The translations under genes were made by a program, and so were the position numbers. 59,105 nt of DNA from a virus (lineage: Duplodnaviria > Caudoviricetes). The DNA lies in the IMG/VR virus record IMGVR_UViG_3300030330_000851, positions 1 to 59,105 of that record; one strand, given 5' to 3'. The notes below the pieces were generated by a model that was given only the letters and a program-made list of their open reading frames with translations, searched no databases and was not told the origin of the DNA. Below are positions 2,602 to 59,105 of this stretch, in pieces; within the stretch, counting starts at the first letter, position 1; each line of letters opens with the position of its first letter.

Positions 2602-2650
2602 TAAGATTAAAATTTTATCATTATCTTTGTTGAAACAAAAACAAATTATT

Positions 2651-2809
2651 ATGCCAACAGTCACATACAAATGTCCTGATACAGGAAAGAAAAAAACTAA
2701 AAAGTTTGCTTACAATGCAGTAGGTAAAGCACAAGCGTCAGAGTTTGCTAAAAACATGGGAGGCAAAATAAAAAACAACCCCGGCTACGGCATGGAAATT
2801 AAATACTAG
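2651..2809 (+). CDS. Small basic hypothetical protein (MPTVTYKCP...)
   Basis: ATG at 2651 downstream of TATCTTTG at 2622-2629. Confidence 0.65.
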   Translation: MPTVTYKCPDTGKKKTKKFAYNAVGKAQASEFAKNMGGKIKNNPGYGMEIKY

Positions 2810-2813
2810 TATT

Positions 2814-3038
2814 ATGAAAAAACAAGGTTACAATGCAAGACTTGATGAGTCAATAGGTGGAAGACACAAAGGTGCTCACAAGCAATCAATGAAAGACAGA
2901 AGAGACGAAAGTAAAGCTATGTCTAAAAAAATGTACGGTCACTCTTATGGAGCAGACAAAGGAATGTCTTATCGTCATTCTCATCCTGAGTGTGTTAACT
3001 ATGTAAAGAAACATTTATCAGGTTTAATCAAGAAGTAA
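2814..3038 (+). CDS. Small basic hypothetical protein
   Basis: ORF track; coupled to the next gene (TAATG). Confidence 0.65.
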   Translation: MKKQGYNARLDESIGGRHKGAHKQSMKDRRDESKAMSKKMYGHSYGADKGMSYRHSHPECVNYVKKHLSGLIKK

Positions 3039-3238
3039 TGGCTAAGAAAGGTAGAACTAAATTTCCTGCAATTAAAGAAGCTAACGAAGGTAAGTTCACC
3101 AAGTGGGCAGAAAAAAATATGCCCGGCAAATCTGTATGCAGTGCTGCATCTTCTGTTTTAAAAAACAAAGACAAGTATAAAGGCTCTGTTGTTAAGATGG
3201 CAAACTTTGCTAACAACTTTGGATGTAAAAGAAAATAA
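3038..3238 (+). CDS. Small basic hypothetical protein (MAKKGRTK...)
   Basis: ORF track; EGKFTKWA and ANFANN motifs. Confidence 0.7.
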   Translation: MAKKGRTKFPAIKEANEGKFTKWAEKNMPGKSVCSAASSVLKNKDKYKGSVVKMANFANNFGCKRK

Positions 3239-3240
3239 CC

Positions 3241-3408
3241 ATGCACAAGAACAAGTCAAGAGGTTTCGGAGATTCAGTAGAGAAGTTTACTACTAAGACG
3301 GGTATAAAGAAAGTTGTCGAGAAAGTAACTAAGGCTGCCGGTATTGAAGACTGTGGTTGTGGTAAAAGGCGTGATACCTTAAATAGAATAATACCTTATA
3401 AGAAATAA
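3241..3408 (+). CDS. Small basic protein, 55 aa, not in the ORF track (MHKNKSRGFGDSVEKFT..DCGCGKRRDTLN)
   Basis: Hand translation; fills the gap exactly; GDxxxK and CGCxxR motifs are typical of small phage proteins. Confidence 0.75.
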   Translation: MHKNKSRGFGDSVEKFTTKTGIKKVVEKVTKAAGIEDCGCGKRRDTLNRIIPYKK

Positions 3409-3411
3409 ACA

Positions 3412-3888
3412 ATGGCATACCAAAAATTACAAGCCGGAAGGGCTTTAGCAGTAATACCAAGTGATGAAGTGGATATACCTAATCCTGCTTCATTTATGGT
3501 TCGTTCTACAACAACCTCAGCAGCAGCTAATAAGTTAATAGATACCAATGTAGACTTCATTGCATTAGGTGTTAAAACAGGTGATATTATATATGATGTA
3601 TCTACTAGTGTTGCATCAAGAGTAGTAAAGATAGACAGTGCTACTCAGTTAGATGTAACAACAGCAATACCCAATGCATCAAATTATGATTTATACTCTC
3701 AGTCTAGTATGCCAAGTACCGGGTGTGTATTATACATTGGAGTAGGTGGAGATGTAAATTTAGAAACTGCAGGTGGAGATAAAACCATCATCTTTAAAGG
3801 ATTAGTAACAGGGCAGTTTGTTCCTGTGCAAACACTTAGAGTTAATGCTAGTAGTACAACTGCAACGGATATAGTTGCCTTATGGTAG
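3412..3888 (+). CDS. Putative virion structural/decoration protein
   Basis: Beta-rich; LYIGVGGDV..GQFVPV..RV.ASSTTATDIVALW C-terminal pattern. Confidence 0.65.
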   Translation: MAYQKLQAGRALAVIPSDEVDIPNPASFMVRSTTTSAAANKLIDTNVDFIALGVKTGDIIYDVSTSVASRVVKIDSATQLDVTTAIPNASNYDLYSQSSMPSTGCVLYIGVGGDVNLETAGGDKTIIFKGLVTGQFVPVQTLRVNASSTTATDIVALW

Positions 3889-39300: not shown

Positions 39301-42012
39301 AAGACGTTACGAACAGAGAGAGATGCTATAGATGATGCAGGTATTGATTATGTTATAAGAAAGATTAATAAGAATGAAAAGCTAACACCTGAAGAAACAA
39401 ACTTGTACTATAGAAACGAGGCTTATGAAATGTTGAAAGACTTTAATGCACTTAACCTTGATGAGGTACAAGGATTGTTTGAAGAGATTTCTCTACTCAA
39501 GAAAGAAGGTATAGAGCAATTGAAATCTAATCTTGCTGCTCGTACCAAAAGAAATCAAAAGACTGAGGAGGAAGCTATCAAACAAATCAAAGAGGACTAC
39601 TCCTACCTTGTTAATGAGGATGGAACTATATTCTCTTCTACTGAAGTGAGCAATAATCAAGCTGATATATTTAAAAGATGGAGGGAATCTAAGGGTTTTA
39701 AGTCTATTAAAGATATGTTTAGTCAGTGGGCTAAGGGTAGAAAGGGCAACATGGTTATTAATAATATGGGTAGTCTTGAAACCATGACCAATGCTCTTGA
39801 CAATCCTGTAAAGGGAAACAATTTTTTTACAGAAAACTTTACCAATAGACTAAAAGATTTACGTGAAAGATTTTTAGATGGTAAACAAAAAGAAACTAAA
39901 AAGATTGACGAGATACTTAATAGCATCTCAGGAATAAAATCTAAGACACGTCCTTTTAAGCGTCCTTATGGTGTGTTGATAGATATGTTAGCTCAACCAA
40001 AGATAACTGTTACAAACGCTAAAGGAAAGACTGAAAAGCTTACTCGTGACCAAGCACTAAGAATATATGCGCTATGGCAGAACCCTGTGCAAAGACAGAA
40101 GCTTGAGTTCGGTCATGAGAAAGGCGAGCCTACCAAAGGAACTTTTTATAATCAGGAGACTATTAATGAAATAGAAAGTAAGTTAGGCAAAGACTTAATA
40201 GAGTTTGCGGATAAAGTTATAGCTTACTTAAACACGGAGTATTATGATAGCATCAATCAAGTATACCGACAGGTAAACAATGCCAACTTAAAGCGAGTTG
40301 AAAATTACTTTCCTACTCGTACTGTAAACGATTCGTTTGAACGAATGAAACTTGAGGAAGCCGGGGACTTTGGTGCCATCTTTCAAGCGGTAGCTCCTGC
40401 GCTTCACGAACGTACCGATACTACAGGTCGTATAAAAATAACCGAAGACGGTGTGGCATTAGGGTTTACCTCAGTGCTTAGTGAGCATATCGAGTCCATG
40501 GAAAGGTTCAAAGCATATGCCGAAGGTGTAAAAACCATGCGGGATATACTAAGAATGAAGTCAGTAAACTCCGTGCTTGAGGCTACACGTACTAAACAAA
40601 TGATTAAAGATAGGATAATGGCAGCAGTCAATCCATCTTTTTTACTTAGAAGAAAAGGTAAGCAAACCTTTAGTAAAGTATTTAGTAACTTTACTTCATG
40701 GGCATTAGGGTTTAAGTTATGGCAAGTACCAAAGCAAGCCTCTTCTTTCATTACTTCTTTTGCTGATTACGATTCAGGAATAAAAAGCTATGATGCTTTA
40801 GGTGTAAGCAAAGCGGCAGGGGATATGATAATGTATTCCATTGACCTGTTAACTACCGTAGCTAACCTAAGCACGGACTTGCTACCCGACAAACAACGAT
40901 TAGCTATAAGCAAAAAACTTGGTATTAATATTCCTGAAGGACCAATACATCAAGCCTACCGTGTGTCCGCTACATTCAGAGATAGGATTCAAGAGGGAAT
41001 GCAAGGAGATGTATGGGGTCTTGAGTCGGGGTCAGCCATTAAGAAACGTACAGGTGGTGTGGTGCCAAAAAAATTAGTAAGACTACAGCGTGGTTATAAG
41101 GATTTAAAAACATTAGGTAATGCGTTCACTATGTTTGGTGATGCTCTTGGAGTAATGGGTTACATGGTTAACTATAGAAGAGATTTAAAGAGAGGCATGA
41201 GTCAAGCAGAAGCTTTAAGAAAGTTTAATAAGTATGAATCCACTCAGCAAACAAGGTCTACTGTAGAAAAGAATAGGTTACAACTTGAAGGTTCTGATTT
41301 CACAAGAGTGTTTACCATGTTTGCAAGCACAATATTTTTACAGCAAAATCAAATAGCACAATCCTCATCTAATATTTTACAAGCATTTGCTAATGGTAAA
41401 GTTCCTAGACAAAAAGATATTCGTGCATTGTACTTGAATCTTGGGATAGCTAATGTTGCCTTTATATTTATGCAACAAATATTTAAGTATGCCTTTGGAG
41501 ATGATGAGGAGGTAGAAGAAGTAACAAACAAAATGGAGGATGTAATGTATGGCATCAATAGTCTTGCTGAGTTGCCTCTAATGGGACCGAGTATAATTGA
41601 AGCAAAAAAATATTTCATTGATGAAAAGATAAGAGGAAAGAAAAGAAAGTATGGGGAAAAAGTTCCTGAAATATCTAACCCCCTAAACCAACTTGTTCTG
41701 AAAGGTATAAGAGAATATGACAAGGCAGGTTCAAAGGAAGCAATTAAAGGATTAGCTGAAGTTATAATAGGAATAAACACAGACCCTATAATAGGGTTTA
41801 AGAATAAGGTGATAGGAGACAGCGACTTTACAGAAATGGATAAAGACTTCTATGATATGTTAGGTATTCCTAAGACAGCCCGACCTAAAAAGAAAAAAGC
41901 GGATGACTCTCTTGATAAGTTTGATAATTTTGAGTCGTTTGATAAGAGTGATAAATTTAAAACTTTTAAACAAGAGCAAAAAGAAAAAGATAAAGAGGAT
42001 GAGAATTGGTAA
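30391..42012 (+). CDS. Giant polyvalent virion/ejection protein, 3873 aa (two zincin metallopeptidases, ART-like module, LPD23-like domain)
   Basis: FHEGVH..EEQLAE (about 33994); VHNT..FEEFD..GKGLYVSD (about 35452-35547); GWYRGVDGEYRYEIPD (about 36973); LLHEIQHAIQ..EGF..YGEIESRNVE (about 37336-37930). Confidence 0.8.
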   Translation: MNEEAIQRFYELFQQDGYTKSLDEFKQLMRTNEEAQEVAYELALGDGYTKYFDDFKLLVGATMDDRQREEARIYNERLEMQAAEQKKKEDMESLLEPSSSESRTDDSLRVSYPMETTWEGAEATVDPAAPLQATTENMKQFAQIREQMKVENRIKAAQKQYPELFEDFELSYRNYDTGDAKKDLVRDQRNLLLIEMPPEELKRLSDLHKQQKSIYKQIPNVKYPEATKEYKKWRQISNEISEINNKYLVRYSPLGDVDKFEQGRLSNLTQGKEQLEYLQSRARDRAERKEAKRDRWKESVDKYITEDLAGQEEEEVVSFLKNQFGDSGFSFQQVDTDLGLFEVDMGDAMRVVAPNGADIEIDLDTVMSEGEEAEKLKNFMMANRPAKVSNTIQKRYNNEQDVKEGMDYVKSLNNSYVKSSRNLDKFQELYYNQRRQWEALSTDQKNTPEGNALFNEMMNSQEGYNTAKKNVELDKKKLAKESQEVDYLAGKYLAYKNDPDRGSYAGALYNSALGLVDHTAGATVSISNLIADKVVKPMIKKNLPGLTKEELEGIDNNEYSKELLEKARGVTDAIKAKDQEAFAEEWKKSTPGMVLTSVAEFLPAMAAGPLSIPLIGLSSMDMFAQEMESIEAFDNVDDGEKLALAAALAIPMALLERIGFTNAAIKSSPKILNYLMAKGVMGAEKAGMKMSHKAITKATIEEIENSGLRGLAKMGAAGLAEFETGLAQGMVEGGTKWAYDFLKDKKMYDAPDLTTAKGWGDWAINSLESGYYEMLGGLVMGVPVGLASAVTKKDFTQIDDASWELFKQIKDDPTLLNLSEQDFIQKIALGKASKADAIRVRDNFREAVNIYNKIPEPDTYSTNQQKQIMGLLLRKAQLEARKKGKDPTLALKEDAEIDSINKKLAALSESAGDAAIDERRMKENIKEEFSNLKEDDEIELVVEKLEDIPEQYRETATKQQTGDAKIEVNSLVAGLPIGKTSSSVSGDFYTYKLTGKQINDAIQEQSTTDMDAPQSTTDVQEVEVGTSAAGPEVTATEEIKVTDEEKAGLNNLGFTDEMIEVMTPEDVDIAKTYTDPAQATEMKQKYEEDMQRLKELQAEGTEGGRVEAVTAVEGDAVVNNRGQVTLTKNQEKLVKRAKNVAKSLKGLIPKLKIVTHATNADYFEAINEKETDKNRFERGEFDSKTNTIHINLQNADGSTVFHEGVHALLYSKFSNSVLQKVISDDLIAKLVRVIPKGSFTIQRRLLLPNGESAFETVDMHQYLKDVASDYKKANVKEISEEQLAEVFGALASQYNSMTVSQKSVITKFFAKVYKFFGGKGDINSFTNDDVAVVNLLNSLAFKMRTGEEIIEDDVTVLKDAEQRAIEGTAETTTEKSPKTKTKGRPKQTVEELLKERSELEEYLMMHPKKRYIAKKERIKINKRLQAIDNLLLKRDKEDRQKTKTKGKLMKEGKSHIFVKKYPDSKTGFKLTIKEVLPNNLIRFEKNKNINNTNNLFRKDNEGNYVEVLPGNKTGQVIGFKPAKTKAAPVETTTEAVEEGVNAEIELEIAQVEFEIEEAEQLIEEIQIEINNIKSNFKEDVDKLKARGKKFMKTDEYAEELEELKYSRDGNLESYNDDLKEARSDKRKLETKKKKLEAKLTPTSRKQVAAKEVDMVFDIEANKNVLDKVGSKKDYVEYLKSTLTFPQIFVHNTLRPFEEFDSDLTTTGTKDLGKGLYVSDIKNSNQWKAYQSLEGRKGNTILKENITSLASQVGLTEEYLKSLYTKNFQEKKKQIQNKLRKENPNLSEQQLKNETAMLLMEDAAMSYDKIGIIENALKENDAKIKGDTKQLSRLKELLSKYKKVKDVEILDEPTQQYYGYIGEQAPVQVDDMYRDEGETDATFVMKGEEDNVSEAIFKDKKDYIRLGSKEDVKRFKEFMSTPTSRKQIAAKEDIIFDGKKISKEDLGKRYKEIRSDNYLIPIKQIGNYITYNGDNSQIKEVVDIINERVSPKKKTGNYSERFINSLQRFAFDSGTPRKFASAIRKSFDPNFTSATQKENIRYGKFKNFQDRLDYFEITKTYTPTLTTQQVDNDYNKKVEAFAKEYGYKIPESYNYDKKAPTSRKQVAAKESVAPMKVNEEFSKMTPAQKRKQIGGRFGNLSLELRKGLFRAKQAYKYADEYERLRKSNKIRDIELFEKKYQQNPPMTEQKIFLNSGGWYRGVDGEYRYEIPDGKLVKGTYQEFTKQSLSEPENREARLDEIYIAPELYKTYPQIADIMVQFEPMVTVKKRGKVEKNTATVGYFSNRNQLIVINTNESDFAEANPTQQRNLIFYTLLHEIQHAIQLIEGFALGASDKESKAGRGKRVTEKWNQGKEDLTKERIFQSRYHKDLRKKYETFRINKEFVGHFIRVLNKLSAKRYNEEFFKLLKSGNKGKDLVSILKTLYLEGGEKIYKELAADARYFHKEVSGRKIKMTQESLGNFLDKMLDFSALNGMTEATDIEDVSRRLIKMLELYDSFNMYSRTYGEIESRNVEERARKKKELAVLKSKIDKVERLGMKKGVDELEKIERIEQLEEQLYRELPTVHEDSQGLIEGVNEELQGPYIMKTQPRGRMKKVAPKKQTQLTTTEENVQDIERIQSISRKQLPPKTASLEDIVAWGRERGEKDSVIRMLLKSRGFGTLSEIDDAMRKTMEMKAMPTELASILGGIKKGEELFKDVMTKFYDATMETKEVTGESKERIAKAKKIMLNNPQEYGNEKDGVFIKKDKEGNVIRKQTLDITKAKGGVKIITATEVLGVPRTSMETVFTKSLGKRREILQDLLKKNPVYKNLSEYEKATVESALDRVLNTRANPTVQQRIEAARRVKRAVEKNQKDVQELRNRLTALIRESLPKVMKNAESTKNLNRLLRIISKGTKDTVLTDTEKILKEIETINKKEATTIKDKIRKIIKAKSRSDYQKIGVDATTHQFFQALNRMLKIVEVNAKDVDLLEKTLRTERDAIDDAGIDYVIRKINKNEKLTPEETNLYYRNEAYEMLKDFNALNLDEVQGLFEEISLLKKEGIEQLKSNLAARTKRNQKTEEEAIKQIKEDYSYLVNEDGTIFSSTEVSNNQADIFKRWRESKGFKSIKDMFSQWAKGRKGNMVINNMGSLETMTNALDNPVKGNNFFTENFTNRLKDLRERFLDGKQKETKKIDEILNSISGIKSKTRPFKRPYGVLIDMLAQPKITVTNAKGKTEKLTRDQALRIYALWQNPVQRQKLEFGHEKGEPTKGTFYNQETINEIESKLGKDLIEFADKVIAYLNTEYYDSINQVYRQVNNANLKRVENYFPTRTVNDSFERMKLEEAGDFGAIFQAVAPALHERTDTTGRIKITEDGVALGFTSVLSEHIESMERFKAYAEGVKTMRDILRMKSVNSVLEATRTKQMIKDRIMAAVNPSFLLRRKGKQTFSKVFSNFTSWALGFKLWQVPKQASSFITSFADYDSGIKSYDALGVSKAAGDMIMYSIDLLTTVANLSTDLLPDKQRLAISKKLGINIPEGPIHQAYRVSATFRDRIQEGMQGDVWGLESGSAIKKRTGGVVPKKLVRLQRGYKDLKTLGNAFTMFGDALGVMGYMVNYRRDLKRGMSQAEALRKFNKYESTQQTRSTVEKNRLQLEGSDFTRVFTMFASTIFLQQNQIAQSSSNILQAFANGKVPRQKDIRALYLNLGIANVAFIFMQQIFKYAFGDDEEVEEVTNKMEDVMYGINSLAELPLMGPSIIEAKKYFIDEKIRGKKRKYGEKVPEISNPLNQLVLKGIREYDKAGSKEAIKGLAEVIIGINTDPIIGFKNKVIGDSDFTEMDKDFYDMLGIPKTARPKKKKADDSLDKFDNFESFDKSDKFKTFKQEQKEKDKEDENW
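35308..36717 (+). repeat. Three in-frame 36-nt direct repeats (35308-35343, 36148-36183, 36682-36717) encoding (T/A)PTSRKQ(V/I)AAKE
   Basis: ACCCCCACCTCACGTAAGCAGGTAGCTGCAAAGGAG; copies 2 and 3 match copy 1 at 34/36 and 33/36. Confidence 0.95.
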
Positions 42013-49812: not shown

Positions 49813-49930
49813 TTGATTTAATTTTTGATTATACAATTCGACGCCTTGAGGCGTCACTTCCCTTTGGTGTATCTCATTATCATACACACCATTATATATA
49901 TCCCCTTCTAACTGTTGGATATAAATGTCT

Positions 49931-50356
49931 TTAGTCCTTCCCATTGTTTAGTTTTTTATATTTACTAACGTGCTTCTCCCAATAGAACTCCTCCACATCT
50001 TTAATGTTATCTGACTGCACACTATCATCCCCTACTTGTTTGTAAAAGGTATTGTTCTTCAGTGCTTGTATATAAAATCCACCTACGTACACCACTACAT
50101 CCGTGCAATCATCTCGAAGAAACTGTGGTTCTTCTGATGTGTATGTAGATGTGTAGTTAGAGTTTATTATCTTAGCTAAAAACTCTGTTTGACTATCTAA
50201 AAATCTTTCTCTTGGTATGAACCTACCGAAACTTTGGAAGTCCTCAAGCGTCATCTCGTCTGTCTTGTCTACATAGGTCTGTAACCTGCGTATAAATTTC
50301 CGATTGGGTTTTGTTTTGAGTTTCTGAAATAGAATCTCTTTGAATATAATGTTCAT
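49931..50356 (-). CDS. Hypothetical protein
   Basis: ORF track; first gene after the promoter at 50386. Confidence 0.65.
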   Translation of the reverse strand: MNIIFKEILFQKLKTKPNRKFIRRLQTYVDKTDEMTLEDFQSFGRFIPRERFLDSQTEFLAKIINSNYTSTYTSEEPQFLRDDCTDVVVYVGGFYIQALKNNTFYKQVGDDSVQSDNIKDVEEFYWEKHVSKYKKLNNGKD

Positions 50357-50385
50357 CTGTCCTTAATTTATTTATATTAACACTA

Positions 50386-50416
50386 TAAAGATACTTAAAA
50401 TAAACTACAATTCCAA
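50386..50416 (-). promoter_or_regulatory. Early/middle promoter TTG-N20-TATCTTTA
   Basis: Bacteroidota -33/-7 geometry; shares CTTGGAATTGT with the 55134 promoter. Confidence 0.65.
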
Positions 50417-50421
50417 GTAGT

Positions 50422-50667
50422 TTAATCTAAATCTTTTGGTTTACACATGAGTACGTTACCCACGATGGTTTGTCCTGCAAGTTTACTTGCGTATTCATTG
50501 ACGGGTAGTCCAAAGATTAATCCTTCTTCGTTGACTATCATGATGTCATCATCGGTGAGTCGCACCAATTCAATGTACCCACCCACTGCGTCTTGCATTT
50601 GTTTAAGGCTATTCTCTTTATCAATAGCTACCTCTTCTATTGTTCCGTCTGTTTTAATCCACTTCAT
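50422..50667 (-). CDS. DUF3846-like protein
   Basis: LKQMQDAVGGYIE..MIVNEEG..LPVN..AS..IVG.V. Confidence 0.8.
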   Translation of the reverse strand: MKWIKTDGTIEEVAIDKENSLKQMQDAVGGYIELVRLTDDDIMIVNEEGLIFGLPVNEYASKLAGQTIVGNVLMCKPKDLD

Positions 50668-50671
50668 CTTA

Positions 50672-50875
50672 TTAGTTTTGATTGTTATTAACTCTGTCGT
50701 AAGCAATCATAGACAGTATGCGTGTAGGTAGTACATGCATATCGTTACATTTGTCACAACATCTATCTCCTTCTTCACCCAAAGGAGCAGGGTTATGTCC
50801 TTTGTCCCATCCTGTGACGGGGCAAGGTTTTATTTCTTGGTTGCACAAACAACACTTTAGTTTTTCTTTCTTCAT
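50672..50875 (-). CDS. Small Zn-finger protein
   Basis: CCLC..GHNPAP..RCCDKCN. Confidence 0.7.
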   Translation of the reverse strand: MKKEKLKCCLCNQEIKPCPVTGWDKGHNPAPLGEEGDRCCDKCNDMHVLPTRILSMIAYDRVNNNQN

Positions 50876-51294
50876 TCTATTATTTTTATTCCCATATTAT
50901 AGGCTACTTCATCAATCATTTCAAAAATTCTCATAGATAGATACTCACTACTAAACACTTTATCAAGTACCTCTCTTGCTTCTTGTTGGGTACAATCCCA
51001 ATTCATTTGTACATCCTCAATACACCACATATTACCTGCGTAGTATCCTCGTTGTTCAAGTATATTCCTCAAGTCTCTTGTCTCTATGGACAAAGAGTTT
51101 AGGTCTACGAATGTAGAGTACCCTTCTTTCTTTGCTTCATCCACCCAATGTTTTAGTTTGTTAGTTACTATATCTAATACCTCTCCGTCTGATAGGTATC
51201 CTTTAGACTCACTGTCCTCAGCATGCTTAGGACTCTCAATGAAATCTATTATCTCTTCCATTTGTTTTACTGTATAACTTTGATTCTTTTTCAT
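50872..51294 (-). CDS. Hypothetical early protein
   Basis: SDGEVLD, WCIEDV..EAREVL. Confidence 0.65.
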   Translation of the reverse strand: MKKNQSYTVKQMEEIIDFIESPKHAEDSESKGYLSDGEVLDIVTNKLKHWVDEAKKEGYSTFVDLNSLSIETRDLRNILEQRGYYAGNMWCIEDVQMNWDCTQQEAREVLDKVFSSEYLSMRIFEMIDEVAYNMGIKIIE

Positions 51295-51384
51295 AACTGT
51301 CTTGTTTTTAAATATTTAATGTAGAGTGTACAGTCAAAGCTGTCCCAATACTCTATCCAATCTGCGATGTTAGTTGCTTTCATC

Positions 51385-51984
51385 TTATTTGTTTTTTATC
51401 TTGTTAATTAACTTGCCAATCTTTTTTCCTGTAGGAGTGTCCTTATAATCGTGCTTCTCTTCTAACCAATAAAGAGTATCCAAAACTTCTTGTTTAATAA
51501 GTCCAATCTTTGCTTCCTCTCTACTTCTAAAGTATTTTGTGTTAGGATTCTCATCATGCATATCCTCTGATACCCAATCCCAATATGAATGTACTATAAC
51601 CCCACCTTCGATAGTCCAATAGTCCTCTCCTTCAGTAAATGGGTATGGGTTTTTATTGTATTCAATTATAAAATGTATGACTGCAGTGTATGTATCTCTC
51701 AAGGAACAGGATGTGTAGCCCTCTTTAATTTGCGCAAGATTTTTGTTAAAGCAAAATGAATCACGTGTATCTATTCTTTTAAAGATGGTATCCACTACAG
51801 GTATTAACCAATCCCATGAGGTTTTAAATTCTAAGTCATTCACAGGAATCCAATCTCCACTATTATAAATTCTTCTATAGTATTCTCCGTTATTCTCTTC
51901 CATGCCCATGAACTCTGCTATTAATCTATTCTCCATGTCTAACATTTTTACAGGCTTGTCCTTTTTTTGTTTTTCTTTTTTCAT
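51385..51984 (-). CDS. Hypothetical early protein (ABA-sandwich-like N-terminal half)
   Basis: NRLIAEFMG..F.TSWDWLIPVVD. Confidence 0.6.
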   Translation of the reverse strand: MKKEKQKKDKPVKMLDMENRLIAEFMGMEENNGEYYRRIYNSGDWIPVNDLEFKTSWDWLIPVVDTIFKRIDTRDSFCFNKNLAQIKEGYTSCSLRDTYTAVIHFIIEYNKNPYPFTEGEDYWTIEGGVIVHSYWDWVSEDMHDENPNTKYFRSREEAKIGLIKQEVLDTLYWLEEKHDYKDTPTGKKIGKLINKIKNK

Positions 51985-52078
51985 AATTATCTTAGTTTAT
52001 AAATTCTTATTTTGTATTTCAATATGTTCAATCTGAATATGGTTTTGTATCTGCTCATGGTATTTATTTTAAGATTAT

Positions 52079-52105
52079 AAAATAGGGGAGAGACTTTCCC
52101 TCCCC
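52079..52105 (-). terminator. Terminator-like hairpin
   Basis: Minus strand GGGGAGGG-aaagt-CTCTCCCC followed by TATTTT. Confidence 0.65.
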
Positions 52106-52139
52106 ATTCTTATGTGTGCGACGCCTCAAGGCGTCATCA

Positions 52140-53345
52140 TTATAGGTAGAGGTTGTGCTTACTAACCTCATCCTCATTGAACCAACCACCACATGCATTG
52201 CAGTAGTACATATTAAACCCATCGTACTCAAGCGTACCTGAGTAACAATCAATACAGTGAGGGTTGACAAGTGTGTTGCTATCCGCACTGATAACCCTGT
52301 CTCTGTTCTCCCACTCCTCTAAAAAACTATCTGTGTTCTCTATCTGCTTAGGTGTTGAGGCAAAGAAGTTATCCTCTTGTTGCAGTTCAGTGGTGTCCTC
52401 CCATGAATCCCATGTAGTGTCCTTCTTTGGTTTTGAATGGTAACTTGGTGTGTTCCATGTGTTCCATGAACTACCCCATCCATAGTTGTACTTGGGTTGC
52501 GACTGCTTGTATGTTTGATGTAGCTTTCTATTGCCCACTTTCTCTTGTATGTTGAAGTATACCCAAGCCATTACAATGCTACCATCCTCCATCTTTATAG
52601 GTATCTTCTCACGTCTGTACCAATTAGGATGTGACTCCAATGAATCAATGTCCTTAAACACTGAGTCACTTACCTTGAACACATCAATGTCTACATTAAA
52701 GCCCACCCCTTTCTCATTGATGAGGTATGGCAATCCACTTATGACAAGAGGATATCTATCTGCTGTCTTACCTGCACCAACGTATCGTGATGAGGTTAGA
52801 TACCAATTGTAATTGCTGTATCCTTTCTTCAGTGTACCATACACACCTATCACATTGTTCTGTAATACGTTGGTCTTTGAATACCATACCCCATCTTTGA
52901 AAGTATACAAGTGTCGGTTGTATATCTGAAAGGTCTTAGTCTTGGTATTGATACTGACAAACCTACTACTATACTTGGCGAGGTGCTTCTTCCATTTCTT
53001 ACGTGGTATGTCCCCAAGTTTCTCAGCTAACACTCTGCTATCACACTTGATGAAGTTACCCATACCCTTGATAGTTCCGTTCATCATAAGCAGTTCATTC
53101 TTCTGCTTACCACATACGAATGGATGAGTATTATCTCTGTTCACTGCACCCACTGTTGCATATCTGAAGTGAGCAATGTATGGTCGTGTCGTATCAAGTA
53201 TCTCCCACTCATGAGACTTGTGATAGGATACATCAAAGGTGTCCAACCATACTACACCCATACCATCAGGGTTTATTTCTGACGCGTTCTCTAAGGTGTC
53301 GCGACTAACCTTGTTTTCTTTTTGTTTAATAATAATTACACACAT
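52140..53345 (-). CDS. Class II (Ntn) glutamine amidotransferase fused to gamma-glutamylcyclotransferase (AIG2-like) and a Zn ribbon
   Basis: N-terminal MC, NPDGMG, AHFRYATVG, NTHPF, NG, DSR; VYGTLKKG..N, IDSLE; CxxC..CxxC. Confidence 0.88.
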   Translation of the reverse strand: MCVIIIKQKENKVSRDTLENASEINPDGMGVVWLDTFDVSYHKSHEWEILDTTRPYIAHFRYATVGAVNRDNTHPFVCGKQKNELLMMNGTIKGMGNFIKCDSRVLAEKLGDIPRKKWKKHLAKYSSRFVSINTKTKTFQIYNRHLYTFKDGVWYSKTNVLQNNVIGVYGTLKKGYSNYNWYLTSSRYVGAGKTADRYPLVISGLPYLINEKGVGFNVDIDVFKVSDSVFKDIDSLESHPNWYRREKIPIKMEDGSIVMAWVYFNIQEKVGNRKLHQTYKQSQPKYNYGWGSSWNTWNTPSYHSKPKKDTTWDSWEDTTELQQEDNFFASTPKQIENTDSFLEEWENRDRVISADSNTLVNPHCIDCYSGTLEYDGFNMYYCNACGGWFNEDEVSKHNLYL

Positions 53346-53420
53346 AATTGTAAATTTAATTTAATTTGTGGTACGAATAACGTGGTCGTACCTTCCACAT
53401 ATTAATGACGCCTCAAGGCG

Positions 53421-54458
53421 TTACTTCCAATTGTCTATCTTCCAACCAAACTGTCTGTTGTTTTGACGCTTGTTGTAGTAGTACAACTCTTTATCTATTG
53501 CACACTGTGTCCACCTACCTGTATTGTAAAAGTCTCCATCAAGAAAGGGCAATGCGTTGGCATCTATCTTGCCCTCGTTTAAGAATAGGTCAAAGCTTTT
53601 CGCATACTCCAATGCCTCATCTACTTTGCGGGTGTCATTGTTATACATCATCATTAGGATGGGACGTATCTTGGCATAGAACACTTTGTGCTGTCGTCTT
53701 GGATAGTTCACTGCGGTATCCATTAACTCATAGAACAACTCGTACCTCCTCATCATCTGACGAACGGATGTGAATCTGCTGACAAGTCTAAACTCAACTG
53801 TCCCATTTGCTTTGGCTAACGCCATGTTATACCTACCGTTCTGTCCATTGTAGGTGTAGTTATACTTTCTCATGTTCTTGGCTAACCTACTCTCCTCTTT
53901 CGTTCTCATGTTGAGGTTGCCATTGCAATAGGAGTTTCCGAGTCTTAGTCTATACAAGTACATGAGTATCCCACTGTACTTGCGTAACTTCTTGAGTAAC
54001 TCTTGAGACTCCATCCCCTCACACGCCACTGTGATATGTCCACCACAATCTGCATTACTTGGACTCCATCTGTCGTCTATAACTCTCTCTGCTTGGTACA
54101 TGAGGTTGTATATTTTCGTTCTCCAACTACATCGTGGTAGCAATGGTAGTATGTGAGTGACTGCCTCAGTCCCACAACTACTGTCTCTCTCGAAGCCACA
54201 AAATAATCTGTACTCATAGATAGAACTACGTGATATGTCCTCCTTCTCCACCTCCATGCCGATAGTAAACTTGGTTTCATAATCTCCACCCAAGTCAATG
54301 AGCGAGTCACGTTGCTCTCGTTTTCTTAGACCTGCAATATCTACTTTGTACTTGGTCTTGTTTAGTTTGAGGGGTGGTAGCTTACAATGGTAGTCCACTC
54401 TTTGTCCTCTTGTTGTGTCGCCTGTTAATTCATAGGCTATTCCATTTTGTTCACACAT
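53421..54458 (-). CDS. COOH-NH2 ligase (amidoligase_2, glutamine-synthetase fold)
   Basis: FTIGMEVE, RDSS..EAV, CGGHITV, RY, GTVEFR. Confidence 0.8.
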   Translation of the reverse strand: MCEQNGIAYELTGDTTRGQRVDYHCKLPPLKLNKTKYKVDIAGLRKREQRDSLIDLGGDYETKFTIGMEVEKEDISRSSIYEYRLFCGFERDSSCGTEAVTHILPLLPRCSWRTKIYNLMYQAERVIDDRWSPSNADCGGHITVACEGMESQELLKKLRKYSGILMYLYRLRLGNSYCNGNLNMRTKEESRLAKNMRKYNYTYNGQNGRYNMALAKANGTVEFRLVSRFTSVRQMMRRYELFYELMDTAVNYPRRQHKVFYAKIRPILMMMYNNDTRKVDEALEYAKSFDLFLNEGKIDANALPFLDGDFYNTGRWTQCAIDKELYYYNKRQNNRQFGWKIDNWK

Positions 54459-54511
54459 AATATTTGATTTGATTTAATTAAACAATATGACGCCTCAAGG
54501 CGTCATTACTT

Positions 54512-55000
54512 TTATTCTTCCGTTGCACCATTGGTTTCTGTTGGTAAGCTTTCAATGTTTGAATTGAATTGTTCCGTTGGTGACTGCGTCTGCTCAATGA
54601 ATGAGAAGTCATCACACATATTCTCTAATACTGTATCTAATAGTTGGTCTTGTCCTTCCTCAATCTCCCTATACATACTACTACTCAACGCGAATGAGTG
54701 TACAGTTACCTCAATCTCATGGTCGTTTAAGTCAAGGTCATAGTCCCAATCCTCTACCCAATCATTTTCTTCTCGTTGAGACACCCAATCACTTACGGAT
54801 AACTTAGCAAACAGGTCTGTAACGTACGCCTTAAAGTCTGCCTTAGTCATGTTGATTTGTCCCTCATTAGCTTGAGGTTCCTCAATCCTATTTAATAATT
54901 TAATCACTTCCTCTCGAGTGAATAATGTTTTGTGGAACACAGTCCCCATGTTCTCATCAAGTTTTGTTAGCACTTCTGCTATTGTCATTTTGTTTTGCAT
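54512..55000 (-). CDS. Acidic hypothetical early protein
   Basis: ORF track; D/E-rich. Confidence 0.7.
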   Translation of the reverse strand: MQNKMTIAEVLTKLDENMGTVFHKTLFTREEVIKLLNRIEEPQANEGQINMTKADFKAYVTDLFAKLSVSDWVSQREENDWVEDWDYDLDLNDHEIEVTVHSFALSSSMYREIEEGQDQLLDTVLENMCDDFSFIEQTQSPTEQFNSNIESLPTETNGATEE

Positions 55001-55133
55001 AATACATTTATTAATTGGTTACACTGCCAAAACCCCATGCCGTTGCTGACATGGGGCGAGATAAACGACGCCTCAAGGCGTCATCTATATTTCGTAGGCA
55101 AATGAGTAGTAAACCCTACGAATAATAACAATA

Positions 55134-55189
55134 CAAATGTACTGTAAATAAACGACAATTCCAAGACAATTTGAAAGGAGTTATCCACA
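55134..55189 (-). promoter_or_regulatory. Early promoter TTG-N20-TACATTTG with an upstream perfect DnaA box, TTATCCACA (55181-55189)
   Basis: Bacteroidota consensus and the canonical DnaA box sequence. Confidence 0.7.
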
Positions 55190-55203
55190 GCTTTTGTATG
55201 TGA

Positions 55204-55329
55204 TTACTTTCTTTTAATCCTACCAATCTCATTTAGTTGTTTGAATTTCATTAACTTCTCTTCTATACTTACCACTATGCTCACTAAACTACTCGCCACT
55301 ATTGTGGCTACTATCATTGTTGTTGTCAT
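55204..55329 (-). CDS. Small membrane peptide, 41 aa (not in the ORF track)
   Basis: Hand translation MTTTMIVATIVASSLVSIVVSIEEK..; starts just after the previous stop. Confidence 0.45.
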   Translation of the reverse strand: MTTTMIVATIVASSLVSIVVSIEEKLMKFKQLNEIGRIKRK

Positions 55330-55332
55330 GAC

Positions 55333-55794
55333 TTATTTGTTTTGGTATTTCGTTATCAATTCTTTTATCTGCTGAACATCCTTTTCGGGTATCTCTCTAT
55401 ACAACCACGATGTGCCGTACTTATAGTTGTTGTCATAATATATGTTTGCTCTTTGTAATTGTTCACACGCCCACTCATATGATTGGTATTCCCCCAAACT
55501 TTTAAGATACTTTGTTTGCATTGGAGTCCCTGCGTTCATGTCGTTCAGATGATGCTTCTCCCATAAACTTAGAATGGTTTGCACATCTTTATTGTTGGGA
55601 TAATCTTTCGCTATTGTGTCTATGCATTGACCTGCCCTTTGATAGTCCCAATCGTCTATGTACTTATCATATTGATAGTCATACAATCCACTTGCAGAAA
55701 AACATAATCCTTTTTCTTTTTCTATTAGGCTTATTTCAATTACTGAATGCCCCTTTAAGTAATGGTCTCCTCCGAGTTTTATTTTTGCTTTCAT
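55333..55794 (-). CDS. Hypothetical early protein (GQC..W..HLNDM..Y.YG..W family)
   Basis: AGQCID, LWEKHHLNDMNAG, YKYGTSWL. Confidence 0.75.
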   Translation of the reverse strand: MKAKIKLGGDHYLKGHSVIEISLIEKEKGLCFSASGLYDYQYDKYIDDWDYQRAGQCIDTIAKDYPNNKDVQTILSLWEKHHLNDMNAGTPMQTKYLKSLGEYQSYEWACEQLQRANIYYDNNYKYGTSWLYREIPEKDVQQIKELITKYQNK

Positions 55795-55806
55795 AACTTA
55801 TTTGTT

Positions 55807-56103
55807 TTAAAAATTTACTATACTACCATCATCCTTTACCATTCTCACAACCTCAACATCACTCCAATTTTCACATTGGGTTATCTCTCTCCAAGTCCTT
55901 GCCAACTTGTGTGCTTCAAAATTTGTTAAGTACAAATCGTTTACCTCCACGTCCTTCCAAAAGACTGAGTAAAGTTTGAGTGAGTCGTAATACTCTTGGT
56001 CGTGAGGGTATCTTGCATCCTCTAATTCTTCTTGCCAATCCAACCACTCTTGGTCAGTCATATCTCGTTCGTCTTTTAAACCGAACACTACTTCATTCTT
56101 CAT
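55807..56103 (-). CDS. Acidic hypothetical early protein
   Basis: ORF track. Confidence 0.6.
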   Translation of the reverse strand: MKNEVVFGLKDERDMTDQEWLDWQEELEDARYPHDQEYYDSLKLYSVFWKDVEVNDLYLTNFEAHKLARTWREITQCENWSDVEVVRMVKDDGSIVNF

Positions 56104-56119
56104 GCTATTTATTTTTATT

Positions 56120-56287
56120 TTATTTGTTTTTATTTAAGTCGTTTACAATGCTTATAGCCAACTCTAACCCCACTATTTGTCCTTCCATATAATCATATGA
56201 AGCATTATTTGGAGTAAAGCAAGGACAGTTACGTTCTTTTTTTATTCTCTCTTTTAATGCTTTTATTATTTTTTCTGCTTCTTGCAT
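56120..56287 (-). CDS. Hypothetical protein, 55 aa (not in the ORF track)
   Basis: Hand translation MQEAEKIIKALKERI..YMEGQIVGLELAISIV. Confidence 0.6.
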   Translation of the reverse strand: MQEAEKIIKALKERIKKERNCPCFTPNNASYDYMEGQIVGLELAISIVNDLNKNK

Positions 56288-56290
56288 AGC

Positions 56291-56491
56291 TTATTTGTTT
56301 TTAGTTATTAAAAAGTATCCATGCAAGTATCCCATTGACATCAATAGCCAAACTATACCTGTTATTATTCTTGTTTTCATTTGAATTTCACGTGGAGTAA
56401 AATCTCCCATGAAACTTAATACTGATGCAATACCCAACATAACTGCAAGGATAAAGCACACATTCTTTAGATAAACATCTTTCTTTTTCAT
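56291..56491 (-). CDS. Small 2-TM membrane protein
   Basis: Two hydrophobic segments. Confidence 0.6.
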   Translation of the reverse strand: MKKKDVYLKNVCFILAVMLGIASVLSFMGDFTPREIQMKTRIITGIVWLLMSMGYLHGYFLITKNK

Positions 56492-56497
56492 CTGTAT

Positions 56498-56695
56498 TTA
56501 TTTATTTGGTTTAACATTATGACGCCTTGAGGCGTCACTCTCTATTTCGTTTAGCATCTCGAGATGATTATCTAATACATTTAATAATCTTTCGAGGCTC
56601 TCTGTTTTTGTATTGGTATTACTTAGTTTAATAAATCCATGCACGCCCCCAATACATAACAATAATGCGCACAATGGTATAACAATTAGTCCCAT
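56498..56695 (-). CDS. Small membrane-anchored protein; its 3' end runs through a palindrome copy
   Basis: N-terminal TM; DASRRH is encoded by the palindrome. Confidence 0.5.
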   Translation of the reverse strand: MGLIVIPLCALLLCIGGVHGFIKLSNTNTKTESLERLLNVLDNHLEMLNEIESDASRRHNVKPNK

Positions 56696-56708
56696 GTTTT
56701 CTTTTTTT

Positions 56709-56879
56709 TTAGTTATAAATTTTACTGTCTAAGACTTCTATCTTTTTAATTAAACTTTTGTGCCTATCTAACTTAATAATTGCTTCTTCTTTTGTTTCAG
56801 CTTTTATTATGCTATAAACTTTTCGCCATCTAAAGTTTTTGTGGTCGCGTTCCTGATGTGTTATTTTGTATGTATTCAT
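56709..56879 (-). CDS. Hypothetical protein, 56 aa (MNTYKITHQ..YSIIKAETKEEA), not in the ORF track
   Basis: Hand translation; similar to 42650..42937. Confidence 0.7.
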   Translation of the reverse strand: MNTYKITHQERDHKNFRWRKVYSIIKAETKEEAIIKLDRHKSLIKKIEVLDSKIYN

Positions 56880-57084
56880 ATAAATAAATATTAATACGAC
56901 GCCTCAAGGCGTCAACGGTTAAACAATAATGACGCCTCAAGGCGTCACATATAAACATAATCAATAAGCTATTATAAGCGCGTTTAAGCGCGTTAAAATG
57001 CTCAAAGGTATGCAGGTACCACAAACAAATAAAGCCCGCTTAAAAGCAAGCTATTTAAATGAATTGGTACCGTTATACACTACC

Positions 57085-57114
57085 AAAAGCCCCCACCATT
57101 TACGGCAGGGGCTC
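57085..57114 (-). terminator. Terminator-like hairpin after the first early gene
   Basis: Minus strand AGCCCC..GGGGCT followed by TTTGG. Confidence 0.6.
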
Positions 57115-57137
57115 AAGATTAGATATGTAGTTAAGTA

Positions 57138-57806
57138 TTAGCTTAAATCAGCTGTTGTCATGTTAACGCCTGCTGATATACGCGCGTTTTGTTCGGACGT
57201 TTCAACAGCTTTTAACATTTCCATTAAAGCTTTTTTAACGTCGACCGTATCGCATGGGCTTTTGAAATTGCCTTGGCTGTCAATTCGCGCATGAACCTTT
57301 TTACCGTCTAAATCAAATGTAAAGGTAGCTTTTGATTTTTCGCGTCCGCTTTCGCTTTTGGCTTTCACGCCGTCCGCGTCACCGCCGTTTGCCGTTACTT
57401 TTTTATTCCATTTCAAAAAGCCTTGTATGGACGTTTGCAAGCTTTCATCTTTACACGCTTTAACGTACTTCTTTTTTAATTCGCCGTCTTTGGCAATTGC
57501 CGTATAAACTTGAATCATTCGGTTAGGGAATTTAGGGCTTTCATATCCGTAAACTTCAGTCATTAACAGCTTAACAGTCATATCTGAAAAACCAATTTCA
57601 TTTAGCTTAGCTTTGCCCTCGTCACTTTTAATCCATGCCTTTGCGCTTTTCATGATTTTAGCCTGTTGCAATTGCTTTTCAAATTTGCTTTTCGATACCT
57701 CAAAAGCGCTTTTATCAAAGCCTTTGATATCGGTGTTTAATTGGTTAAACTTATTTACGTTTAGGCTTCCTAAACTTTTCACTTTGTTTAAAATAGTATT
57801 ACTCAT
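57138..57806 (-). CDS. First early gene; Lys-rich hypothetical protein
   Basis: 222-aa ORF with its own promoter and terminator. Confidence 0.75.
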   Translation of the reverse strand: MSNTILNKVKSLGSLNVNKFNQLNTDIKGFDKSAFEVSKSKFEKQLQQAKIMKSAKAWIKSDEGKAKLNEIGFSDMTVKLLMTEVYGYESPKFPNRMIQVYTAIAKDGELKKKYVKACKDESLQTSIQGFLKWNKKVTANGGDADGVKAKSESGREKSKATFTFDLDGKKVHARIDSQGNFKSPCDTVDVKKALMEMLKAVETSEQNARISAGVNMTTADLS

Positions 57807-57877
57807 TTATTTAAGTATTATGACGCCTCAAGGCGTCGGTTCATATATAACATATTAGCACCGCGCTAATACGACGA

Positions 57878-58564: not shown

Positions 58565-58593
58565 AGGGGATGCCTGAGGGTGTCCCTTTTTTT
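58565..58593 (+). terminator. Intrinsic terminator
   Basis: GGGATGCC-tgag-GGTGTCCC followed by a T-run. Confidence 0.75.
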
Positions 58594-58830: not shown

Positions 58831-59105
58831 ATGCAACAACAAGGATACACTCCCAAGGACTTAAAGTTCGGTGAGGAGGGAAGGACAAAGTTACGTAGTG
58901 GTATAAATAAAATTGCTTCTGCGGTAAAGAGTACACTCGGTCCACGAGGGAACACGGTACTCATTGAATCACAACATCACACATCAGGAATCACAGTTAC
59001 TAAAGATGGTGTCACTGTCGCTAAGTCAATTGACCTAATAGACCCGGTGGAGAATCTCGCAGTGCGAATGATGAAGGAGGCAGCGGATAAGACTGCGAAC
59101 TTAGC
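58831..59105 (+). CDS. groEL: GroEL N-terminal part (continues at position 1 of the window)
   Basis: MQQQGYTPKDLKFGEEGR..AVKSTLGPRG..TVTKDGVTVAKSI; TATCTTTG at 58801-58808. Confidence 0.95.
   Translation, partial: MQQQGYTPKDLKFGEEGRTKLRSGINKIASAVKSTLGPRGNTVLIESQHHTSGITVTKDGVTVAKSIDLIDPVENLAVRMMKEAADKTANL
59029..59105. repeat. Terminal overlap, copy 2
   Basis: Identical to 1-77. Confidence 0.97.

Follow-up and report, generated by a model that had tools for sequence, protein, structure and literature searches.

The early region of a tailed-phage genome (IMG/VR record IMGVR_UViG_3300030330_000851, a complete phage genome analysed over its whole length of 59,105 bp and called the window below) carries nine copies of a short palindrome, which would be this phage's private version of a punctuation element used by the early operons of its family. 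Related phages carry such palindromes at their own early sites, each genome with its own arm sequence, repeated exactly around a freely varying centre; in relatives the flanks covary on the RNA strand, and many copies are followed by a hammerhead ribozyme. Our leading reading, held tentatively, is that the palindromes form an operator-like array that is read on duplex DNA by the product of the first early gene (p222) and throttles the early genes, and that the same sites, once transcribed, serve as hairpins that end the early cistrons.

The 18-mer YGACGCCTNNAGGCGTCR occurs exactly in eight of the nine copies (all but copy 7; Table 1), and it was found in none of 100 dinucleotide-preserving shuffles (mean 0.00 matches). 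When up to three mismatches were allowed, the 16-mer core gave 11 matches against an expected 0.55, namely the eight perfect copies, one with a single mismatch (53407, ...GGCGTT) and two with three mismatches, at 33576 and 58569. All nine copies lie within 49839-57838 and none in the remaining ~50 kb, as the original prediction had stated; its consensus, YGACGCCT-CA-AGGCGTCR, describes eight of them, the copy at 53406/53407 not being an exact fit. The centre on the + strand is CA in seven copies and TG in two (49839 and 56520), again as counted before, giving loops of UUGA and UCAA, respectively, on the transcribed - strand. The terminal Y...R pair on that strand is U-A in four copies, U.G in four and a C/A mismatch in one. 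Folded as - strand RNA, each copy forms a stem of 6-8 bp with a 4-nt loop, at -10.6 to -16.6 kcal/mol in eight copies and -7.3 kcal/mol in the mismatched one.

Three copies begin 0-6 nt past a stop codon, and five lie 14-29 nt ahead of a start codon; the gaps to the ATG are longer at 55066, 53406 and 52119 (65, 60 and 60 nt, respectively). This spacing agrees with the earlier description, as do the tandem placement of the copies at 56930 and 56897 and the presence of a copy before the DnaA-IV-like gene's own start. The description had also placed a copy ahead of each of eight gene starts, which holds for the spacing, except that copy 8 leads only to a 23-codon open reading frame (ORF; 51987-52058, - strand) that begins 60 nt after it. 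Three single-gene units are indeed boxed in by copies (54512-55000, 53421-54458 and 52140-53345), yet some early genes go without punctuation: 55204-56491 and 49931-51984 each hold several genes in one block.

The phage belongs to a large group. Its large terminase matches 87 phage records, the nearest being MW202828.1 at 74.7% identity, followed by 68 Flavobacterium 'elemo' phages (45.6% in the listed rows), 15 Cellulophaga, 2 Tenacibaculum and 1 Maribacter phage; DNA near-identical to the early region was found nowhere in the phage collection. A primase-profile scan of IMG/VR returned at least 598 candidate stretches, at least 530 of them confirmed relatives, and 80 loci were kept, many of which carry little upstream sequence, while several full-length loci truly lack palindromes. 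One IMG/VR contig, G001, is collinear with the window, with most proteins 70-98% identical and a primase 97% identical.

At all nine window sites, G001 has a palindrome at the orthologous spot. Its arms, however, read GGCTCG/CGAGCC instead of GACGCC/GGCGTC, such that three of the six stem pairs have been swapped, each change being fully compensated, whereas the flanks are conserved between the two phages and near-identical for tens of nucleotides at several sites. Altogether G001 carries 14 copies of [AG]GCTCG-N4-CGAGC[CT] with seven different central tetramers, and the early module of MW202828.1 carries GTGTCGTTAACGACAC 14 times, the copies beginning 3-4 nt after stop codons. Among the 80 IMG/VR loci, 32 have at least three copies of one 5-N6-5 palindrome, with GTGTC arms in 28, GTCTC in 3 and GTGTG in 1, and a further genome, G009, has a GTGGT-arm palindrome four times. 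The arms are kept strictly: in the GTGTC phages, 252 perfect copies stand against seven one-mismatch arm variants (3 G.U, 3 A.C, 1 other), which are too few for a test of strand bias in the arms.

Exact arms around a free centre within each genome suggest a sequence-specific reader that co-evolves with its sites, and the concerted switch from one dialect to another suggests that this reader acts in trans, selects the site sequence and changed along with the sites, since nine dispersed 16-bp sites cannot drift alike by chance and are too short for gene conversion. We infer, then, that a protein reads the palindromes. In a quick primase tree, palindrome-free phages sit at several places inside palindrome-bearing clades. 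The element is not universal in the wider group, as the elemo Flavobacterium phage NC_055854.1 (large terminase 45.6% identical, same layout) has no repeated GC-containing palindrome. Elsewhere, the window's dialect was found once each in the best 80 of 113 viral stretches, apart from two copies in a giant-virus contig, and only singly in the best 80 of at least 120 bacterial stretches, from mostly unrelated high-GC lineages. With no multi-copy occurrence in bacteria among the matches listed, the motif is not a host element of the repetitive extragenic palindromic kind, a possibility that the original prediction had raised against its novelty.

In many relatives the helicase gene itself contains a copy, ~3.6-3.9 kb past the point where the primase begins (13819 in L040, 14980 in L036, 10680 in L070), where the peptide SVFEDT is encoded by GTGTCTTTGAAGACAC (GTGTC..GACAC). 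The peptide follows the dialect, reading SLFEET with GTCTC..GAGAC in L036 and SVFEHT with GTGTG..CACAC in L070; in the palindrome-free loci L059 and L062 SVFEDT is kept and the site is broken by synonymous codons. Judging from these codons, the in-gene copy is maintained through codon choice and through amino-acid changes that follow the dialect. The window, G001 and MW202828.1 have no such copy in the helicase gene.

In relatives the flanks lengthen the stem of the palindrome. When 150 of the relatives' 165 distinct copies from the early region were aligned together with 10-nt flanks, flank covariation was 0.249, versus 0.127 +/- 0.009 in shuffles (none of 500 reached the observed value) and 0.077-0.182 for slid partners. 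Where exactly four of the five flank pairs are Watson-Crick on the coding strand, the odd pair was G.U or U.G 18 times and A.C never, the tally being completed by eight other mismatches and one all-Watson-Crick copy; the rows are related, and such counts overstate the number of independent events. A bias towards G.U that is seen on the coding strand only implies that the hairpin forms in RNA. The loop is biased as well: in intergenic early copies of the GTGTC phages the coding strand reads UCAA 83 times and UUGA 13 times.

Furthermore, many copies in relatives are followed, 8-12 nt further downstream, by a compact type-III hammerhead. A strict pattern search returned 35 of these, spread over 22 of the 80 loci. 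The genome's own palindrome stands directly before 25 of them, and a different perfect hairpin, in some cases with a C(UUCG)G loop, before 7; the other 3 failed the hairpin test, one of them having an imperfect hairpin by eye. The three in locus L067 score 44.1, 42.2 and 32.5 bits against Rfam RF00008 (best E 2e-7), and as these scores sit under the gathering score of 48.5 bits, a standard Rfam scan misses hammerheads of this type. Others lie between early genes of L075, L072, L021, L045, L071, L088 and further loci; none was found in the window between 49000 and 59105 at E <= 5. Once cut by such a ribozyme, the upstream RNA would end, on its 3' side, in the palindrome hairpin. Going by covariation and ribozyme coupling, then, the palindrome is also a real RNA hairpin in relatives, which bears out the suggestion of the original prediction that it acts as an RNA stem with a tetraloop. 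Its view that mixed orientation speaks for a role at the DNA level was accordingly half right.

These observations are the core of a strong rival to the operator reading, in which the palindrome works purely at the RNA level: the hairpin would define where each early mRNA ends on its 3' side, or would mark it for processing or stability, its stem being read on RNA by a phage protein, much as Cas6 reads hairpins or as the stem-loop of histone mRNAs is read by its binding protein, with no binding to DNA. The flank covariation with its 18 to 0 excess of G.U, the predicted cuts 8-12 nt past the palindrome, the loop strand bias and the replacement of the palindrome by other perfect hairpins at 7 of the 35 hammerheads, C(UUCG)G tetraloops included, all speak for it, and so do features of the copies themselves, namely their start within 0-6 nt (window) or 3-4 nt (MW202828.1) of stop codons, closing pairs of U-A in four copies and U.G in four, and the stability of eight of the nine hairpins. 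Still, we consider this account on the unlikely side. Most RNA hairpin readers work the opposite way to what is seen here, where the arms are exact and the loop varies freely, and G.U pairs are not tolerated in the arms. A hairpin kept for stability needs no common sequence, yet all nine orthologous sites changed together; the window mixes seven UUGA and two UCAA loops on one strand and itself lacks a ribozyme; and a predicted symmetric dimer, as described below for p222, fits a two-fold DNA site more readily than the stem of a hairpin, whose sequence has no two-fold symmetry.

As to the reader, our candidate is p222, the 222-residue product of the first early gene. To compare gene content, 13 further whole contigs were added and all ORFs of 16 genomes were clustered, and the p222 family proved to be the one most tied to the palindrome: it is present in 11 of 12 palindrome-bearing genomes, the sole missing bearer being an 87%-complete contig, and in none of three palindrome-free ones. 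G009, whose palindromes have GTGGT arms, has it too. Next come two enzyme genes of the same module, each at 10 of 12 versus 0 of 3; their window and G001 versions share 95% and 85% identity, compared with 97% for the primase and only 43% for p222. In most genomes a palindrome lies 14-39 or ~220 nt before the p222 ATG, and another soon after its stop codon.

An AlphaFold2 (AF2) model of p222 (mean predicted local distance difference test, pLDDT, 82.7) is mostly helical with a small C-terminal sheet. Its variable part is a helix at residues 88-106 (92-106 in the AF2 model), which together with the preceding loop reads G[WY]QKSF[FG]YK in all 11 GTGTCT-type phages, even though overall p222 identity among them is only 34-54%; the helix sequence differs in each of the window, G001, MW202828.1, G002, G003, G004 and G009. 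A two-copy model scored 0.79 versus 0.02 for the best of three controls; among proteins of solved structure, 20 of 30 pairs and 1 of 23 single chains attained that mark. At least 98% of contacts are common to the runs (partner pLDDT 84), and the predicted interface comprises residues 5-86 and 158-205, with the variable helix left free outside it. The modelling thus supports a p222 homodimer. Structural look-alikes of p222 were confined to unnamed viral clusters in the Atlas and four unnamed BFVD matches, and a large protein search gave eight matches, its own cluster included, none of them informatively named.

The original prediction had proposed an operator of a dimeric regulator, which is the reading we favour, and had named two candidates for the reader, both of which we rejected on covariation or distribution. 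The winged helix-turn-helix (wHTH) protein at 1623-2063 is 88% identical between the window and G001 despite their differing arms, with scattered conservative changes only and, by our reading of the sequences, unchanged central helices; it is present in all 10 further genomes tested, 4 of which have no common palindromes. The DnaA-IV-like protein is present in all 39 loci compared, 9 of them palindrome-free, and its HSSIYHG segment is the same in the window and G001. A test of gene-content association within +/-10 kb of the primase mainly returned the two early-module enzyme genes and is confounded by replacement of the module.

Taken together, the operator reading would run as follows. Each palindrome would be a site of 16-18 bp in which every base of the two 6-bp arms is recognised and the four central bases serve as a free spacer. 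A phage-encoded factor would read the arms and co-evolve with them, most likely p222 as a dimer, bound to the duplex form of the DNA. Recognition of duplex DNA is suggested by the exact two-fold arms, the free spacer, the lack of G.U tolerance in the arms and the predicted symmetric dimer. One site would lie in p222's own promoter-proximal leader and the others at cistron boundaries, where they would act as operators or 'stoperators' (roadblocks) that throttle early transcription once p222 accumulates; we favour such an array also because promoter-like -7 boxes (a weak one before p222, and those at 57010 and 55141) lie upstream of copies. Since the sites are transcribed, they would also fold into stable tetraloop hairpins of 6-7 bp that end each early cistron, and in relatives the hairpin, lengthened by its covarying flanks and followed by a hammerhead, would become the 3'-terminal hairpin of the upstream mRNA. 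The two roles are separable, for other hairpins replace the palindrome at ribozymes and the in-gene copies lack lower stems.

A number of points weigh against this reading. The coding-strand G.U bias and the hammerhead coupling indicate that the RNA form is under selection, something not required of a pure DNA operator, and the 83 to 13 preference for UCAA is not predicted by a symmetric DNA site, although shared descent may explain it. No nucleic-acid-binding fold could be assigned to p222 by family, PDB-sequence or Foldseek searches: it has no Pfam or PHROG match, its profile gives only chance-level matches to PDB sequences, and Foldseek searches of the PDB with the whole model and with a 91-residue domain returned nothing at E <= 0.001, the helix-turn-helix look of the model being our own reading only. 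Three phages with GTCTC arms (G002, G003 and G004) have three different p222 helices, and the helix of MW202828.1, with GTGTC arms, is unlike that of other GTGTC phages; there is therefore no simple one-to-one code between helix and arms. The phyletic test includes only three palindrome-free genomes, in which the whole early module is replaced and the two enzyme genes are lost as well, and the sequences behind all our counts are related, such that the counts are not independent events.

A further reading, improbable in our view, is a phage-private 'mRNA-end code'. Here p222 would be a new type of dimeric reader, and what it recognises would be the stem of a 6-bp tetraloop hairpin, specific to the genome in its bases and borne by each early transcript; in relatives this hairpin would be the 3' end that the hammerhead cut leaves. 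By analogy, such a code would resemble the histone stem-loop and its stem-loop-binding protein (SLBP), but would be built from a ribozyme and a fast-evolving protein.

Could the hairpins simply be factor-independent terminators or attenuators, one after each early gene? Their GC-rich stems and intergenic positions just past stop codons would fit, and a lenient terminator scan of the - strand flagged three of the nine copies as having T-rich tails (56948-56929, 54506-54487 and 56914-56897). The tails after most copies, however, are interrupted mixes of U and A without U runs. Moreover, the copies at 52119, 53406 and 55066 are separated from the next ATG by another hairpin of different sequence, which carries a U tract in two cases (52105-52085 and 55056-55029); two to three copies precede a separate canonical terminator-like structure. 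In relatives, transcription must pass the hairpin to make the downstream hammerhead, and terminators need neither be identical within a genome nor switch in concert between genomes. We therefore regard ordinary termination as very unlikely to account for the element. One of the second hairpins may itself be something else: the loop UCAGCAACGG of the hairpin at 55029-55056 is nearly matched by UCAGAAACGG in the distant relative L040 (~2546-2575) on a different stem, which suggests, on this comparison, a separate conserved RNA motif and not a plain terminator.

The Bacteroidota -7 consensus is TAnnTTTG, and two boxes of this type lie upstream of copies in the window (Table 1), along with a weak -7-like box before the p222 start, just downstream of which copy 1 is placed.

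Table 1. Positions of the palindromes, adjoining hairpins, promoter-like boxes and candidate reader gene in the window, and of hammerheads in locus L067.
Feature	Position	Strand	Remarks
p222, first early gene, 222 aa	57138..57806	-	candidate reader of the palindromes
Copy 1 (CGACGCC UUGA GGCGUCA on - strand)	57821..57838	-	14 nt before first early ATG; -10.6 kcal/mol
Copy 2, upstream one of the tandem copies (spacing 33 nt)	56930..56947	-	-12.6 kcal/mol
Copy 3, tandem partner of copy 2	56897..56914	-	17 nt before ATG 56879; -10.6 kcal/mol
Copy 4, UCAA centre	56520..56537	-	28 nt before ATG 56491; -13.1 kcal/mol
Copy 5, sole long lower stem (12 pairs in fold)	55066..55083	-	-16.6 kcal/mol
Copy 6	54488..54505	-	6 nt past stop of 54512-55000; 29 nt before ATG 54458; -12.8 kcal/mol
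Copy 7, one mismatch	53406..53423	-	first three bases are the TAA stop of 53421-54458; -7.3 kcal/mol
Copy 8	52119..52136	-	3 nt past stop of 52140-53345; -11.4 kcal/mol
Copy 9, UCAA centre	49839..49856	-	26 nt before ATG 49812 of DnaA-IV-like gene; -10.8 kcal/mol
Second hairpin then UAUUUUAU, terminator-like	52085..52105	-	13 nt after copy 8
Second hairpin CCCCAUG-UCAGCAACG-GCAUGGGG then UUUU	55029..55056	-	9 nt after copy 5; identical in G001
Second hairpin GGUACGA...UCGUACC	53370..53392	-	after copy 7; conserved in G001
Bacteroidota-type -7 box TACCTTTG, TTTG upstream	57003..57010	-	~55 nt upstream of tandem copies
-7 box TACATTTG	55134..55141	-	~50 nt upstream of copy 5
Type-III hammerheads between early genes	L067 304-358, 1413-1467, 4739-4793		RF00008 32-44 bits

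The original prediction had also offered recombination sites for the shuffling of gene cassettes, noting that no recombinase is encoded; indeed, no recombinase family was found among the 36 window ORFs scanned with Pfam and PHROGs. A related idea takes its model from PeSLs, small composite terminator/promoter sequences implicated in insertions and deletions in T4-like phages (PMC4122927, as far as its available text goes): the palindrome would be a joint at which co-infecting phages exchange early gene cassettes. The three boxed single-gene units speak for it, and replacements between the window and G001 at window positions 52068, 56876 and 55128 begin within about 55 nt of a copy. By our count, though, these are only ~3 of ~10 early synteny breaks between the two phages, and those at 51251, 55343-55810 and 56139-56279 lie away from copies, which leaves the recombination proposal weak.

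An identity of 16 bp is short for homologous exchange. All nine sites, moreover, keep their flanks and change only the palindrome, the opposite of what a recombination joint would do, and the 14-29 nt between copy and ATG leave no room for a promoter, with two -7 boxes lying upstream of copies instead. The likeness to PeSLs, as these are described in the source available, thus comes down to a stem-loop that recurs ahead of many small early genes where the genome is plastic, and we give the joint little credence.

Hairpin promoters of the N4 type, used by an RNA polymerase carried in the virion, would be another way to explain hairpins restricted to the early region, given that the + strand module ends in a giant ORF of the size of N4's virion RNA polymerase (30391-42012, 3873 aa). 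In phage LUZ7, according to the part of PMC9163698 available, there are nine early hairpin promoters, two of them in tandem 33 nt apart, the distance also seen between the window's tandem copies, and the middle hairpins are GC-rich with stems of at least 6 bp and loops of 3-4 nt. In N4 and LUZ7 (PMC4496689; PMC9163698), conserved stem bases are read by protein and free stem positions only pair, a further likeness to the short GC-rich early hairpins of the window. N4 hairpins, however, act on the template strand with a conserved 3-nt loop (PMC4496689, same limit), whereas here the G.U pairs are on the coding strand and the loop has 4 nt and varies (seven variants in 14 copies of G001). Hammerheads also need an RNA that starts upstream of the hairpin, and two host-type -7 boxes lie upstream of copies.

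The ORF itself did not support a polymerase in family, PDB-sequence or motif searches: it has no Pfam or PHROG RNA polymerase match, no PDB sequence match, and neither a D.D.D or D[FY]D.D motif nor ordered T7-like motifs. We hold N4-type promoters to be the least probable of the explanations. The only family match of the giant ORF is a sub-threshold one to LPD23, and the ORF is a mosaic, residues 1-1357 and 2098-2557 aligning to G001 and residues 1-60 and 2629-3868 to MW202828.1 (the latter stretch at 25% identity).

With regard to the rest of the genome, the ends of the record share 77 identical bases (59029-59105 and 1-77, recorded as a 'direct terminal repeat'), and a GroEL-like gene (Cpn60_TCP1; 58831-59103 plus 1-1416) begins before base 1, and an open frame runs off the far end. 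Because the ends share these bases and the gene appears to cross the join, the record is, from its sequence, probably a circular assembly opened inside a gene; a GroES-like ORF follows at 1400-1657. GC content is 0.34-0.41. The + strand carries the terminase, portal and capsid-module genes, the giant ORF ending at 42012 being the last, and the - strand, from ~58351 down to 42016, carries genes for a primase, a helicase and an exonuclease along with numerous small ORFs. An identical -7-like box, TATCTTTG, recurs at 2622, 5899 and 58801 (+ strand), ~16-22 nt before the ATGs at 2651, 5923 and 58831; by sequence and position, the three boxes are probably host-type promoters of the + strand module. 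Of the boxed genes, 53421-54458, earlier labelled an amidoligase, has no Pfam or PHROG match at the thresholds used; 52140-53345 matches GGACT (E 7.6e-20) and, weakly, class-II amidotransferase domains. Both are lost along with the palindromes in the three palindrome-free genomes.

Several smaller features lie near the array. The DNA around the 23-codon ORF (51964-52070) is 92.5% identical in G001, though the genes that follow differ between the two phages. Copy 8 with its flank (52114-52150, - strand) bears a non-significant resemblance to a CRISPR repeat model (RF01343, CRISPR-DR33; 23.1 bits, E 0.26). The three-mismatch core match at 58569 corresponds to a strong terminator-like hairpin with a T7 tail (58565-58588, + strand) in the divergent inter-module region. 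In the close relative G001, a DUF805b RNA motif (RF02914; 39 bits, above gathering; L007 8101-8135) was found ~120 nt upstream of a palindrome; it was not called in the orthologous stretch of the window.

Co-evolving operator arrays, phage hammerhead clusters and repeated early stem-loops are each known already, the first as stoperators and the last as PeSL and N4 elements. A close likeness is that to the stoperators of Cluster A mycobacteriophages, which, in the parts of the sources available, are short sites present in many copies per genome, mostly intergenic and outside promoters (PMC6550527), with a consensus that differs between related phages and tracks the cognate repressor (PMC6550527; PMC9283540). 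The palindromes share with those of L5 and Bxb1 the many copies, the mostly intergenic placement and the phage-specific consensus. Stoperators, though, are described there as asymmetric 13-bp sites, oriented with transcription, spread genome-wide and bound by the monomeric immunity repressor of temperate phages, whereas the window's sites are two-fold symmetric, do not extend beyond the early module's first ~8 kb and are also RNA hairpins. Their asymmetry is limited to the 2-4 central bases and is mixed 7:2 in the window, giving no single orientation, and neither an integrase nor a repressor homologue was found among the window ORFs scanned.

As for the ribozymes, clustered hammerheads that flank single prophage genes have been proposed to process mRNA (PMC3088659), and the type-III hammerheads between the relatives' early genes similarly imply cutting into gene-length mRNAs. 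Unlike those clusters, the window has no hammerhead, and a genome-specific hairpin 5' of the cut was not seen in the available portion of PMC3088659. The differences from N4 and LUZ7 lie, within the same limits of the sources, in the coding as opposed to the template strand, in loop length and conservation and in the absence of a detectable phage RNA polymerase; those from PeSLs lie in the hairpin-to-ATG gap, which fits no promoter, and in orthologous sites that differ in the palindrome only.

Two better-known hairpins invite comparison as well. The boxB hairpin of the lambda N nut sites is read mainly via its loop and occurs twice per genome. The stem-loop at the 3' end of histone mRNAs, read by SLBP, has a 6-bp stem and a 4-nt loop and is followed by cleavage a few nucleotides downstream, in eukaryotes and by a protein/snRNP machinery. 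Both, like the palindrome, are short hairpins common to a set of transcripts with a dedicated reader of a specificity that varies among relatives, and here the first early gene adjoins a copy; we found no relation in sequence or fold to lambda N/boxB or to histone SLBP. The original prediction knew of no described system with the motif. The element as such is likewise undescribed in the literature we searched (supplements lying outside its scope), where we found no symmetric, genome-specific palindrome that switches in concert at the boundaries of orthologous cistrons and doubles as a pre-ribozyme hairpin; stoperators, PeSLs and N4 promoters are nonetheless related kinds.

If the operator reading is right, marine podophages of the Flavobacteriia type, a large group not studied so far, with at least 530 relatives in IMG/VR, would use a short exchangeable recognition word that changes in concert at all of its sites when the reader changes. 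Such phages would supply natural orthogonal regulator/site pairs, useful as parts for Bacteroidota genetics, and a clean system for asking how a multi-site regulatory code switches without a dead intermediate. Compact hammerheads would gain a concrete job, the making of hairpin-capped mRNA ends, and should the code be one of mRNA ends, a change of dialect would keep the regulation of one phage from acting on its co-infecting relatives.

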